DNA of 64,000 bases. Origin: Bacillota bacterium. Its GTDB lineage: Bacteria; Bacillota; Clostridia; Christensenellales; CAMQZB01. Both the position numbers and the translations under genes were made by a program. Within the stretch, counting starts at the first letter, position 1. Each line of letters opens with the position of its first letter. The notes under the pieces are model-generated. The model was not told the origin of the DNA. It saw nothing but the letters and a program-made list of their open reading frames with translations, and did not search any database. Shown here one piece after another: positions 6,474 through 60,385 of this stretch. The stretch is taken from contig JAWXUU010000009.1 in the NCBI GenBank assembly GCA_044426085.1, forward strand, positions 19,450-83,449, read 5' to 3'.

Positions 6474-6570
6474 GCACGAGCAAAGCGAGTGCATTACCAC
6501 AATTTTTAATTTTTAATTTTTAATTTTTAATTTTCACTTTTCACTTTTCACTTTTCACTTTTCACTTTTA
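6474..6570. repeat. Heptamer-array/hairpin repeat, locus 1 (single arm)
   Basis: GCACGAGC-AAA-GCGAGTGC-ATTACCAC followed by (AATTTTT)4 AATTTTC (ACTTTTC)4 ACTTTTA. Confidence 0.9.
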
Positions 6571-6594
6571 AATTGCACCGCTTTGCGTTGCCTT

Positions 6595-7605
6595 TCACTC
6601 TGCATCCAGCATATTATCGATGAAAATTCCGTAGCCCCTTGTTGGGTCGGCAACGAAAACGTGGGTTACTGCGCCGATCAGTTTATCGTTTTGCACGATT
6701 GGGCTTCCCGACATGCCTTGAACGATTCCGCCAGTTGATTCGAGCAGTCTTTCGTCGGTGATTTTTATCACCATGCCCTTTTCTGTTTTGTTTTTGCCCA
6801 TATCTTTTGATACTATTTCACAATCGTAATACTGCGGACTGTTGCCTGAAATTGTTGAAAGGATTTGGGCTTTGCCGATTTGGACTTCTTCTTTGGTGGC
6901 AGTTTCGAGCAATCTTGATTCTTCATTTAGCCAATTTTTGTTTTGGAACTTACCAAAAATTCCACAGCCATTATTTTTCGCGATTTCGCCGTTCAATGTT
7001 TTATCTTTTATGAAAACACCTTTCAGTTCTCCCGCTTTGCCACGCACACCTTTATTCACGCCTAGTATCATAGAACTGCAGATTTCACCACCCGCGATTG
7101 GGGCTGGGGTTCTGTTTTTCCAAACGGAAACGGGATGACCAAGACCCGCGAAACTGCCGTCTTGCTTGATATACGTTATCGTGCCTATCCCTTCGATTTT
7201 TTCCCTTGCGTGAATGCCAAGTTTTGTGCCATCTTCACCATGATAAGTCTTCACCGTTGTTGTTTCACTTTTGCCGTCGCGAAGAAATTCAACCGATACT
7301 TCTGCACCCGCTTTTTTCATGGCTTTTCTTAAACTTTCAAGATCTTTAACTTTCGTTTTGCCAATCTTTTGAATTATATCCCCGTCTTGGAAATTCAAGA
7401 TTTCTTCTTCACCATTTTCTTTGTGGATTTTGTTTGATTCTTCCGTTTTGGAAACCACCACGCCGTCTGGTTCTAGTTCTATCCCCACTGTGATACCACC
7501 GATATAAACACTTTCGCTTGCAAATGCAATTTGACTGCATCCAAAGCTTGCTGTGCCCACGATTAAACACAGAAAAATTAACGTTATATTTGCAACTTTT
7601 TTCAT
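6595..7605 (-). CDS. spoIVB: SpoIVB peptidase (S55, PDZ)
   Basis: GIGTITY...FAGLGH, TGGIVQGMSGSPIVQN, GAVTHVFVADPTRGYGI. Start reassigned to ATG 7605 after AGGGAGG. Confidence 0.93.
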   Translation of the reverse strand: MKKVANITLIFLCLIVGTASFGCSQIAFASESVYIGGITVGIELEPDGVVVSKTEESNKIHKENGEEEILNFQDGDIIQKIGKTKVKDLESLRKAMKKAGAEVSVEFLRDGKSETTTVKTYHGEDGTKLGIHAREKIEGIGTITYIKQDGSFAGLGHPVSVWKNRTPAPIAGGEICSSMILGVNKGVRGKAGELKGVFIKDKTLNGEIAKNNGCGIFGKFQNKNWLNEESRLLETATKEEVQIGKAQILSTISGNSPQYYDCEIVSKDMGKNKTEKGMVIKITDERLLESTGGIVQGMSGSPIVQNDKLIGAVTHVFVADPTRGYGIFIDNMLDAE

Positions 7606-7827
7606 AAGTACCTCCCTTTCGTCTTTTATATTCTTTGCATGATTGCAGTTTTTATTGCACTGTGAAGATAAAAGTTTTTTGGTAATATATGACACTTATT
7701 TTTTATTTGAAATTGGATGTATGAAATTGTATGTTTGAAATTTTAATCCGAAAATATATAGTGAAAAAGACGATTTATAGTGAATGCAAAAAAAGAAAAA
7801 AGACAAAAAAAGAAAAAAGACAAAAAA

Positions 7828-7851
7828 AGCACCGCGACTTATCGCGGTGCT
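7828..7851 (-). terminator. Intrinsic terminator after the 134-aa gene
   Basis: AGCACCGCGA-CTTA-TCGCGGTGCT followed by a T-run on the minus strand. Confidence 0.75.
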
Positions 7852-7875
7852 GATAGACAAACTTATGATTTATTA

Positions 7876-8280
7876 TTACTCAGTGATTTCAGCATAGAAA
7901 GCTTGAGTTTCTTCAGCTGATTCGAAGTTGAAAATGAATACTTCTTCGCCGTTAGTGATTTTGATATAATCTGCATCTCTTGACAAAAGTGCAGCGAAAC
8001 ATGCTTCGTTTTCAACTTTGAAGTTTCCTTGCATTGTTGTTTCAGAAATATCACCGTTGAATCTCATTTGCATTACAGCTGGTGTTGCAACCATTTCGAT
8101 TTCTGCGCCTTCAAGTGATACAGCTGCATCATATGGACCGCTGAAAACAACTTCTGAACCGTTGAATGAAATGTCGCTTACTTCTTCGCCTGTGTTCATA
8201 AGAACAATACCGAATACTGCTGTTGCAAAAATTGCAAGTGCAATTGTCAAACCTACGAAAAATTTATTTTTAATAATCAT
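7876..8280 (-). CDS. Membrane-anchored hypothetical protein, possibly with a bacterial PH-like domain
   Basis: N-terminal TM helix; RFNG...GNFKV...YIKI...FNFESAEETQAFY resembles bPH-type domains. Confidence 0.55.
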   Translation of the reverse strand: MIIKNKFFVGLTIALAIFATAVFGIVLMNTGEEVSDISFNGSEVVFSGPYDAAVSLEGAEIEMVATPAVMQMRFNGDISETTMQGNFKVENEACFAALLSRDADYIKITNGEEVFIFNFESAEETQAFYAEITE

Positions 8281-58326: not shown

Positions 58327-58371
58327 TTTTTATCCCTTTAGGGCACTTTTGAATCGCCCTTTTTTTGTTTG

Positions 58372-59634
58372 TTAGATGCTTGCTAGCGCGTTTTGGATAT
58401 CCGCAATGATGTCTTCTGTGTTTTCACAGCCGATTGAAAGGCGGATAAGGTTTTCAGAAATTCCACATTCGATAAGCGCTTCTGGTGAAAGTTGGCGATG
58501 AGTTGTTGACGCTGGGTGCAAAACGCATGAACGGATGTCGGCAACGTGAGTTACTTGTTTTATTAGTTTCAAGTTCAAAATGAATTGTTCTGCTTGTGAT
58601 TTGTTTCCTTTGATTCCGAAAACAACAACACCTGAGCCCATTTTCATATATTTTTTGCCTAGTGCATAATCCGCAGAGCTTTCAAGGTGTGGATATTTAA
58701 CCCATTCTACACCTTCGTGAGCGTCTAGGAATTTCGCAACTGCAAGTCCGTTTTCTGAGTGTTTTTCCATTCTCATTGCGAGAGTTTCAAGACCTGCGTT
58801 TGTTGTGTGGGCAACTTGTGGAGCCATATAGATTCCGAAGTCCCTCATGAGTTGAACTCTGGCTTTTGTTATGTATGCCACGGCGCCAAGGCTGTTATAA
58901 ACAAGTCCGTGATAGCTTTCGTCTGGCACGTTGAATTCTTGGTATCTTTCGCTGTCGAAATTGAAGTTGCCACAGTCGACAATCATTCCACCGATTGTGC
59001 CCGCGTGACCTTCTGTGTATTTTGTTGTTGAATAAACAACTACGTTTGCGCCGAATTCTTTTGGTTTTGTGATTGCTGATGTTGCAAGTGTGTTATCAAC
59101 CATGAACAAGATGTTGTGTTTTTTTGCAACGCCTGCAAGTTTATCAAAATCAAGAATGTCCATTGATGGGTTTGCAAATGTTTCGCCAAAGATAATCTTT
59201 GTTGTTGGTCTTATATGGCTTTCGATTTCTTCCGCTGTTGCAGTTGGCAAAACGAATGTGCAATCAATGCCCATTTTTTTGAGTGTCACGCCAAGAAGGT
59301 TATATGTTCCGCCATAGATTGTTGATTGAGAGATAATGTGGTCGCCCGCAGAGCAAACGTTGAAAATCGCAAGGAATGTTGCTGCTTGACCTGATGAAGT
59401 TGCAAGTGCACCAGAACCGCCGTCTAGCATAGCCATTTTTTGTTCGAGCGCATCACATGTTGGATTGCCGATTCTCGAATAAAAATAACCTGATGTTTTC
59501 AAGTCGAAAAGGTCTGCCATATCTGATGGTTTTTCGTAGTAGTACGTTGTTGTTGCATAGATTGGCAATGTTCTTGCTTCACCGTTTTTTGGCTCGTAGC
59601 CTGCTTGAATGCAGAGTGTTTCTAGATTTTTCAT
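58372..59634 (-). CDS. metY: O-acetylhomoserine aminocarboxypropyltransferase
   Basis: YSRIGNPT, SGQAA, VDNT, YSTTKY, HPASTTHRQL, IRLSIG. Confidence 0.92.
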   Translation of the reverse strand: MKNLETLCIQAGYEPKNGEARTLPIYATTTYYYEKPSDMADLFDLKTSGYFYSRIGNPTCDALEQKMAMLDGGSGALATSSGQAATFLAIFNVCSAGDHIISQSTIYGGTYNLLGVTLKKMGIDCTFVLPTATAEEIESHIRPTTKIIFGETFANPSMDILDFDKLAGVAKKHNILFMVDNTLATSAITKPKEFGANVVVYSTTKYTEGHAGTIGGMIVDCGNFNFDSERYQEFNVPDESYHGLVYNSLGAVAYITKARVQLMRDFGIYMAPQVAHTTNAGLETLAMRMEKHSENGLAVAKFLDAHEGVEWVKYPHLESSADYALGKKYMKMGSGVVVFGIKGNKSQAEQFILNLKLIKQVTHVADIRSCVLHPASTTHRQLSPEALIECGISENLIRLSIGCENTEDIIADIQNALASI

Positions 59635-59663
59635 TTTATATCTCCTTAATTGATTTTGCTTTT

Positions 59664-60107
59664 TTAATAGTTTTTCATTATGCGTTCCATATCACGCTTG
59701 ATATCTTTTTCCTTGATAGAATTGCGCTTATCGTGGAGCTGTTTGCCCTTGCAAAGCCCAATTTCCATTTTCACAAGCGAACTGTTGAAATACATTTTGA
59801 GTGGGACGAGAGTGTAGCCTTTTTCTTTGATTTTTGAAAATAGACGTATGATTTCTTTTTTATGCATCAAAAGTTTCCTATCTCTTCTTGGGTCTTCGTT
59901 GAAAAAACTGCCTTTATCATAGGGCGCGATATGCATGTTTTTCACTTTCATTTCGCCGTTTTCAATAAAGATGAAGCTTTCCTTGATAGAAACGTTGCCA
60001 CTTCTTATCGATTTGACTTCACTTCCCACAAGCATGATGCCCGCTTCAAATCGCTCTTCTATGAAATATTCAAAACCAGCACTTTTGTTTACACAAATTG
60101 TCTTCAT
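59664..60107 (-). CDS. smpB: SsrA-binding protein
   Basis: EAGIML.GSEVKSIR, RKLLMHK, GKQLHDKR. Confidence 0.97.
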   Translation of the reverse strand: MKTICVNKSAGFEYFIEERFEAGIMLVGSEVKSIRSGNVSIKESFIFIENGEMKVKNMHIAPYDKGSFFNEDPRRDRKLLMHKKEIIRLFSKIKEKGYTLVPLKMYFNSSLVKMEIGLCKGKQLHDKRNSIKEKDIKRDMERIMKNY

Positions 60108-60193
60108 GCGCTCTCCTTATTTAAATTATTTTGCATACCTTGTTAGTATTATTTTATATAATAACATTTTTTTATAAAATATTCAAGGAAAAG

Positions 60194-60385
60194 AATTAAA
60201 AATTAAAAATTAAAAATTAAAAATTAAAAATTAAAAATTGTGGTGAAGCACTCGCTGTGCTCGTGCATTCTATATTTTAAATTGAGGGTACACATAAAAC
60301 TGACGATTTGATGTGTACCCTTGTTTTTATTTATACCAAAATTTCAAATAATAGAAAGCTCGGACGCAGTGAGTGCTTAACCACA
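60194..60385. repeat. Heptamer-array/hairpin repeat, locus 8 (doublet with a degenerate right arm and a different central palindrome)
   Basis: (AAAAATT)6-GTGGTGAAGCACTCGCTGTGCTCGTGC; AGGGTACACAT...ATGTGTACCCT; AAGCTCGGACGCAGTGAGTGCTTAACCAC. Confidence 0.88.

Follow-up and report, generated by a model that had tools for sequence, protein, structure and literature searches.

What are the short palindromic repeats that punctuate the spaces between genes in this Bacillota genome, and how did they become so numerous? Eight such loci lie in the 64,000-nucleotide stretch of contig JAWXUU010000009.1 that we analysed (the window), which belongs to genome G000; a second genome, G001, represents a sister species of the same genus. 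A preliminary description of the window had seen in them a modular family of non-coding repeats, propagated by an enzyme encoded elsewhere. The modular, non-coding family is borne out by genome-wide counts, by differences in presence and absence between the two species and by the lack of any Rfam match to the window repeats; the loci belong to a genus-specific and very abundant family of small palindromic non-coding elements. As to their origin, they are probably the gene-less, non-autonomous counterparts of a cassette of ~540 bp that resembles the intervening sequences (IVSs) of ribosomal RNA (rRNA) genes and encodes a four-helix-bundle protein. We favour this reading because the two kinds of copy have their arrays and hairpin arms in common, because near-identical gene-bearing copies stand at different loci, because sites turn over between species and hairpins change in a compensatory manner, and because the same layout of mirrored heptamers recurs in other genera, including within IVSs of rRNA genes.

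In the window, direct reading, a search with an nhmmer arm profile built from 201 seed arms and a map of open reading frames (ORFs) agree with the layout first described: eight loci with 12 arms, all of them intergenic, and at every locus the same order of a 7-bp array, the tag GTGGT and a hairpin arm. The profile returns four inverted doublets (12578-12737, 21402-21563, 26533-26692 and 60226-60397) and four single arms (6466-6513, 36993-37040, 39767-39821 and 57267-57317). On one strand, called here the GA strand, the arm reads GCAC-GA-GC-nnn-GC-GA-GTGC with the loops AAA, AAC, GAA, ACC and ACA, as had been noted, while the opposite, inward-running strand of most copies reads GCAC TC GC nnn GC TC GTGC. 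The pattern GTGGTN{2,3}GCAC has 13 matches in the window against 0.36 expected, a number reached in none of 100 shuffles; 12 of the 13 are arms, and the remaining match, at 26162 inside ORF 25492..26439, is not among the nhmmer arms. For three AAAAATT units in a row, at most one mismatch being allowed, the count is 23 where 0.00 are expected. Every locus is situated between long ORFs, and array 37028-37055 ends some 2-3 nt from the 3' end (37058) of ORF 37058..38071. Three features go beyond the preliminary description: array units other than AAAAATT (GAAAAGT, GAAAGGT), fully paired stems with a bulged T in about a quarter of the arms, and a mini-hairpin module, M2, which is the 24-mer CAGGCTTCGCTCTGCGAGCTCGAT. 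Four to five exact copies of M2 lie in the window, at 21357 and 21564 (locus 21341), 26694 (locus 26521) and 39844 (locus 39780), and locus 12536 has no exact copy. No Rfam family matches the window repeats; the only RNA above threshold in the window is OLE RNA, and one miRNA-precursor match that overlaps locus 21341 is far below threshold.

The same search over the G000 assembly (2,021,855 bp in 33 contigs, 38.6% G+C, 94.6% complete) supplies the genome-wide count that had been proposed for both arms and arrays. It finds 291 arms, which form 125 doublets and 41 single arms and so occupy 166 loci, or one locus per 12 kb, and 279 of the arms lie outside ORFs of at least 100 aa on a crude map of 1,640 ORFs. 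Neighbouring arms less than 400 bp apart are without exception head-to-head ('+ then -', 131/131), and the span of a doublet from GTGGT to GTGGT is mostly 125-146 bp. The tag GTGG(T), a spacer of 2-3 nt and a hairpin could be parsed in 255 of 263 anchored arms. Arrays of at least three units number 217, of which 205 lead into an arm of the same orientation; at least two units are present at 241 of 257 arms, with a mode of four units (123/257). The unit has the consensus RAWARKT, with the A-rich strand pointing inwards, and although its sequence varies (AAAAATT 654, GAAAATT 101, GAAAAGT 85 and GAAAGGT 25 times) the 7-bp period is kept. M2 recurs in 89 exact copies, 78 of them between AAAAA and AAAAATT within an array and 81 upstream of an arm in fixed orientation. 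At 42 of 257 arms the array is preceded by a conserved outer module made of a G/T-rich stretch, a GATACAA-like word and CTGCACCAC; window copies of this module are seen at 26480-26515, 26745-26785 and 57190-57245. The centres of 114 regular doublets fall into clusters of 52 (the A-type, the largest subfamily), 21, 17, 3 and 2, plus 19 singletons, and each group has its own central hairpin. In a complete element, each end thus consists of an array of some four units, GTGGT, 2-3 nt and an imperfect hairpin of ~20 nt, and the two ends surround a central hairpin that is specific to the subfamily.

The hairpins themselves vary in a way that preserves their fold. The 255 parsed hairpins comprise 73 distinct sequences. 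In the 19-nt class (class I; 130 arms, 25 distinct sequences) the two pyrimidine mismatches are kept in 122 and 114 arms, and one inner pair is G-C in 113 and A-T in 17; another class has no internal loop but a stem paired throughout except for a single bulged T, as in 26 copies with a GCAT/ATGC outer stem. In a set of 65 arms drawn from the window and from the sister species, 92.5% of cells pair, against 83.2% in shuffles, and the covariation score is 0.229 against 0.109; none of 500 shuffles reaches either value, both of which are inflated by relatedness among the copies. Slid controls pair at 11-54%, and one stem pair is CG in 32 sequences and GC in 24. The preliminary description had further held that the GA/GA internal loop is strand-specific. 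The GA strand is predicted to be the more stable in 181 of 255 arms with DNA parameters and in 195 with RNA parameters, but the margins are small, the mean advantage with DNA parameters being only 0.3 kcal/mol, so that strand specificity is weakly supported. The two arms of a doublet are identical in only 2 of 94 cases, and in 64 of 94 a class I arm is paired with an arm of another class. Since the edit distance within a doublet exceeds that between random pairs of arms (6.46 versus 5.43 +/- 0.24), each arm folds on itself, and doublets are built from two arm types. On the scale of the whole element, the predicted RNA fold has a z-score of -13.6 in a gene-less copy and -10.8 in a gene-bearing copy, and in both kinds the two arrays and GTGGT segments are predicted to form a closing stem of ~40 bp.

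Where else does the family occur? An arm pattern that is independent of the arrays has 192 matches in G000 and 364 in G001, and such patterns place the number of arms in G001 at 364-385; a pattern prefixed with AATT undercounted that genome (34 matches). The other 39 relatives that were searched gave 0-10 matches each, with controls at 0-4, which is background only. A 14-base arm pattern searched against genome contigs had single chance matches in unrelated phyla among the matches listed, and arm patterns searched against metagenome contigs gave 0, then 3 matches, all of them chance matches in high-GC sequence without arrays. The DNA is not peculiar to one assembly, because sequencing runs X2-X4 of one study contain 86-97% of sampled words.

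The two species are related at 76-92% identity in coding matches, mostly ~76-86%, and comparison of filled and empty sites, which the preliminary description had put forward as a check, reveals sites gained and lost between them. At the G001 sites syntenic to window loci 12536 and 26521 no element is present; those sites measure 47 and 99 bp and hold a simple terminator-like hairpin; the counterpart of locus 60194 is 106 bp long and unaligned. When 30 sites of G001 were evaluated, 22 were syntenic; of these, both species have an element at 7, G000 has none at 10, and 5 are ambiguous. Three of the seven shared sites were aligned, and there the two species hardly differ in arrays and arms, while their centres come from different species-specific subfamilies and the neighbouring spacer has diverged. 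The centre subfamilies are likewise divided between the species, with GGAGCGTTACT found 26 times in G000 and never in G001, and GGCGTAGGAT never in G000 and 9 times in G001. From the differences between filled and empty sites it follows that the elements turn over, while their arrays and arms are either constrained or repeatedly renewed. Following the same gene, the G001 site syntenic to window locus 6474 (L002 1320-1400) has ~5 repeats of a G/T-rich unit that is ~15-16 bp long.

Among the genes that the preliminary description had named as candidates to be flanked by copies was a four-helix-bundle gene, and G001 has two such cassettes. PF05635 matches two genes there, at 95.1 bits each, both inside complete elements (L176 and L177). 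In order, the cassette consists of (GGTGAAA)5, a GTGGTAAGCAC..GTGC hairpin, an AGGAG leader, an ORF of 117 aa, a second hairpin, ATTACCAC and (ACCTTTC)4. The ORF belongs to TIGR02436, "four helix bundle protein", with a score of 107.3 bits (cut-off 24), and PDB entry 2rld (five chains) is matched at E 5.7e-38. The two cassettes, which stand on separate contigs, are 99.6% identical (2 differences in 540 bp), and the orthologous G000 site of L176 is without a cassette. Sequences from the inner side of the cassette arms recur in gene-less doublets, ATACTAT... from the 5' side and ...TAATTGAAA from the 3' side, and 53 of 94 doublets have one arm of each kind. The GxxExxY nuclease (PF13366) was not found in either species. 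A solo outer module with ~2 heptamers was seen at a G000 site orthologous to a G001 cassette.

Could the elements instead belong to the host, as cis-acting sequences kept by selection and spread by recombination, such as stabilisers of RNA 3' ends, insulators or sites for nucleoid proteins? Their placement would suit such a role: between convergent genes they are enriched (70 of 255 classified arms against 177 of 1,607 gaps), between divergent genes they are depleted (14 of 255), and mixed doublets are oriented in line with the genes that flank them in 22 of 30 tandem contexts. A perfect hairpin with A- and T-run flanks lies within 8 nt of the outer start of 97 of 257 arrays, with the loop on the inward strand reading GAA, GGA or GTA in 37 and TTC in 2, and the conservation of arrays and arms beside diverged spacer at the aligned shared sites would also be expected of functional sequence. 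However, nearly half of the syntenic sites are empty in one species, the subfamilies are species-specific, two gene-bearing copies are all but identical at unrelated loci, and the two elements that were scanned contain no sigma-70-like promoter and one terminator-like site only. We regard a host origin as quite improbable, and the exaptation of some copies as host elements as possible. The arm was also tried as a promoter in its own right and rejected: TTGTGG and TACTAT stand 23 nt apart, and neither scanned element has a promoter-like site. Palindromes with A/T flanks that abut arrays are seen, for example, at window 21325-21343 and 39712-39765, and some consist of repeated GCnnn pentamers and exceed 40 nt.

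The link to IVSs comes from the wider order. PF05635 genes occur in 9 of its 61 genomes, and 19 copies, in 8 genomes, lie outside the genus. At least 7 of these 19 have mirrored runs of period 7 on both sides, with units that are specific to the lineage. Two of the seven (L187 and L191), in another genus, are classical IVSs, since the genes that contain them are 23S rRNA genes with a score of 2,560 bits to LSU_rRNA_bacteria. Such intervening sequences, with their four-helix-bundle ORFs, have been known in rRNA genes since the 1990s. The IVS of Coxiella burnetii is described as a selfish element of 428 nt whose complementary borders form a 28-bp stem that is cut by RNase III (PMC4990558). It carries an S23p ORF, relatives of whose product form pentameric rings of four-helix bundles (PMC4990558). 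An old hypothesis has the ORF serve mobility, and IVSs are regarded there as selfish elements whose mobility, like the function of their protein, is unexplained (PMC4990558).

Put together, these observations suggest how the elements might persist. A transcript that runs into an element from a neighbouring gene would let the arrays and GTGGT segments pair into the ~40-bp stem, which the host RNase III would cut, as it does in IVSs; an RNase III gene is present in G000. Cutting of the stem would keep insertions between genes harmless or tolerable, and tandem units would allow the stem to form in several registers despite unequal unit numbers on the two sides. The four-helix-bundle protein, whose solved relatives are pentameric rings, may act in trans on the arrays. 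A more specific proposal, which we hold to be doubtful, is that the 7-bp arrays are binding sites of the cassette protein, one heptamer per protomer, that the bound ends pass to a nuclease or recombinase of the host or, at the RNA level, to RNase III, and that gene-less copies are moved or maintained in trans. A pairing of one heptamer with each protomer of a pentamer would account for array lengths of 4-5 units irrespective of sequence.

Several observations weigh against deriving the loci from a four-helix-bundle cassette. Only two gene-bearing copies have been seen, both in one genome, and the G000 assembly contains no PF05635 gene and no trace of cargo or leader; nevertheless G000 has expanded subfamilies of its own (A-type, 52 of 114 cores; 89 copies of M2). 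The gene may have been lost from a cassette or, conversely, captured by a doublet. Junctions and target duplications are unreadable between the two species because at ~76-86% coding identity the intergenic DNA does not align. Mirrored arrays were not detected at 12 of the 19 PF05635 copies outside the genus, a result that comes from a crude detector and is not evidence of absence. A T-run follows the central hairpin in only 26 of 98 doublets, so that a terminator role of this hairpin is not general. Finally, we know of no nuclease or recombinase activity in the four-helix-bundle family.

Among the candidate mobilisers in the preliminary description was a RAYT (a tyrosine transposase associated with repetitive extragenic palindromes, REPs) or a similar HUH enzyme. 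If such an enzyme recognised the hairpins and mobilised the family, the loci would be REP/REPIN sequences of the type found in bacterial interspersed mosaic elements (BIMEs), that is, single-stranded DNA hairpins cut and spread by a RAYT of the HUH Y1 group. The form of the arms invites this: a GTGG tag stands 5' of an imperfect hairpin, and GTGG is a known variant of GTAG (PMC3733652); the 2x2 mismatch halfway along the stem resembles that of E. coli REPs, where it is essential for binding by TnpA-REP (PMC3479197, PMC3333891); and the doublets, with their two arm types, recall the y and z REPs of BIMEs. There is also one RAYT relative, a gene of 263 aa on G000 contig C7:49269-50060, with a doublet directly downstream in both species. 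However, this protein scores only 36 bits to REP_Tyr_transpos (NCBIfam), whose cut-off is 80. The active site of E. coli TnpA-REP consists of H59/H61, Y115 and N119 (PMC3479197), and in the columns of the catalytic Y115, of H59 and of the metal-binding N119 the relative has Phe, Glu and Val. The canonical N-H-x-H has become x-E-x-H in all seven close homologues, and R-Y-I-H-Q-N-P has become K-F/S-V/I-H-Q-x-P in six of the seven, with loss of the tyrosine. No element lies upstream of the gene, and homologues also occur in relatives without the repeats. From the substituted motifs, the one-sided flank and these homologues we conclude that it is a degenerate RAYT relative and not the mobiliser.

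The RAYT relative is ~30% identical to a widespread group of Bacillota proteins of ~250 aa, named RayT or transposase by their sources, in which a C-terminal LSIRQI segment is conserved; the relative itself has a C-terminal segment resembling a helix-turn-helix, and a phmmer search against PDB chains gave chance matches only. It may belong to RAYT subclass 2.1, of the TIRYT type, whose proteins have a C-terminal helix-turn-helix (PMC6006769), although in this genus other residues stand in the columns of the Tyr, of one His and of the Asn. No REP-like sequences are reported beside subclass 2.1 genes (PMC6006769). Nor does any Y1 transposase (PF01797) score above cut-off in G000. An intact IS200-type TnpA, at 135.5 bits (L148, G001:C2:117204-117560), is present only in the sister species and has subterminal hairpins of its own. 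Because, moreover, heptamer arrays are no feature of REPs and the cargo between the arms is not a RAYT, we consider a REP/RAYT system rather unlikely. One weak Y1 match beside the window was discarded as lying inside ordinary coding sequence. A second, classical REP family, with GTAG and a GC-rich palindrome, is present in two types (30 and 15 copies), often clustered, for example at window 57374-57399 (-), and 12 of its 45 copies are enclosed by the two arms of a wide doublet from the main family.

Ordinary miniature inverted-repeat transposable elements (MITEs), moved by a DDE transposase whose full-length insertion sequence is missing from the bin, would account for the inverted-repeat architecture, the constant size and the many copies. 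The repeat family also accounts for breaks in the metagenome assembly, where an arm stands no more than 400 nt from 15 of the 66 contig ends, and the gaps may conceal something. Against this, five transposase families (PF01609, PF00665, PF07282, PF00872 and PF02371) have no match in G000, where neither a reverse transcriptase (PF00078) nor any transposase-like ORF in several copies was found either; the paralogue search returned only an antiporter duplicate and small regulators. Furthermore, the arms of one element differ more than random pairs do, the ends are variable tandem arrays in place of defined termini, and no target duplication was seen, in filled and empty sites that align poorly. 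A MITE origin is very improbable.

Coordinates of the repeat features in the window are collected below.

Table. Arms, arrays and associated modules of the repeat family in the window (positions in the 64,000-nucleotide stretch)
Feature	Position	Strand	Basis
Single arm GTGGTAAT with 19-nt class I hairpin	6474..6500	-	
Heptamer array, 5 AAAAATT-type and 4 GAAAAGT units, A-rich strand towards arm	6501..6563	-	
Hairpin with A-run and T-run flanks, inner side of arm	6424..6465	.	direct reading
Doublet, left heptamer array, interrupted	12533..12590	+	
Left arm with class II hairpin (stem paired throughout, T bulged)	12591..12622	+	
Central palindrome, 12-bp stem, A-type subfamily	12646..12676	.	
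Right arm, class I hairpin	12699..12724	-	
Right heptamer array, 4 units	12725..12752	-	
M2 mini-hairpin module within left array	21357..21380	+	
Left heptamer array, 5 units	21381..21415	+	
Left arm, class I hairpin	21416..21442	+	
Right arm, class I hairpin, inner stem extended	21521..21549	-	
Right array: 2 units, M2 (21564-21587), 2 units	21550..21601	-	
Left heptamer array, 3 units; outer module with CTGCACCAC at ~26480-26515	26523..26545	+	
Left arm, class I hairpin	26546..26571	+	
Right arm, class II hairpin	26648..26679	-	
Right array, M2 (26694-26717), array	26680..26736	-	
Single arm, class I hairpin	37001..37027	-	
Heptamer array, 4 units	37028..37055	-	
Single arm, outer stem degenerate (GCAA..GTGC)	39780..39808	-	
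Heptamer array, 5 units, with M2 (39844-39867)	39809..39867	-	
Heptamer array, 5 units	57246..57280	+	
Single arm, class I hairpin	57281..57306	+	
Left heptamer array, 6 units	60198..60239	+	
Left arm, class I hairpin	60240..60266	+	
Right arm, degenerate, without array	60358..60384	-	

The window also holds a full-length OLE (ornate large extremophilic) RNA at 11874-12476 (-), with 455 bits, and a promoter-like TTGACA-17-TATATT at 12496-12468, directly beside the doublet at 12536. At 41330-41425 (-), a match to the purine riboswitch reaches 36.5 bits against a gathering score of 37, and a perfect 24-bp tandem repeat of 4.7 copies occupies 22594-22705 within ORF 21654..22751 (-).

How do these elements compare with known systems? 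Cyanobacterial STRRs are intergenic tandem arrays of 7-bp units, and the preliminary description had likened the heptamer arrays to them. The likeness extends to the 7-bp period and to nothing further. The arrays described here are short (mode of four units), come in mirror-image pairs and are followed by a hairpin arm. With the REP, BIME and REPIN sequences of Proteobacteria the elements have in common a short, tagged, imperfect hairpin with a mid-stem mismatch (PMC3479197, PMC3333891, PMC3733652, PMC3337134), the joining of two kinds of arm into inverted doublets, a mosaic arrangement with other small modules, and placement after genes (PMC3333891, PMC3733652). The two also agree in reaching hundreds of copies and in having families that are specific to a lineage. 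They differ from REP/RAYT systems in having no active RAYT, in the 7-bp arrays outside the arms, in the 2-3 nt between tag and stem and in the four-helix-bundle cargo; a REP-like form, with tagged mismatched hairpins and mosaic doublets, can thus arise without an active RAYT.

With IVSs the family has in common the cargo of the G001 copies, from the same protein family (PF05635/TIGR02436), and complementary termini, here with a predicted ~40-bp closing stem; two rRNA IVSs of the same order moreover carry their ORF between mirrored heptamers. It differs in location, as IVSs lie in helix 25 or 45 of 23S rRNA and all window copies lie between protein-coding genes, in that nearly all copies have no ORF and have multiplied to hundreds, and in ends made of tandem 7-bp arrays and a tagged imperfect hairpin. 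We found no literature on heptamer-armed four-helix-bundle cassettes or on this repeat family, subscription papers and supplements lying outside the scope of the search. If the reading as gene-less cassette relatives is right, the cargo and end design of IVSs occur outside rRNA, with gene-less offspring in hundreds that turn over between two sister species. Should the cassette protein bind the arrays as well, it would give the S23p/IVS protein family its first function, in a system of protein and repeats that would parallel RAYT/REP but have a non-enzymatic adaptor at its core. The genus offers a natural setting for comparing ends, cargo and empty sites and for testing the protein against defined arrays. 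To what is known of IVSs and REPs we add hundreds of gene-less copies and two gene-bearing copies with common tagged hairpin arms in one genus, a test by which the RAYT reading is set aside, and, in the same order, rRNA IVSs of the same design.

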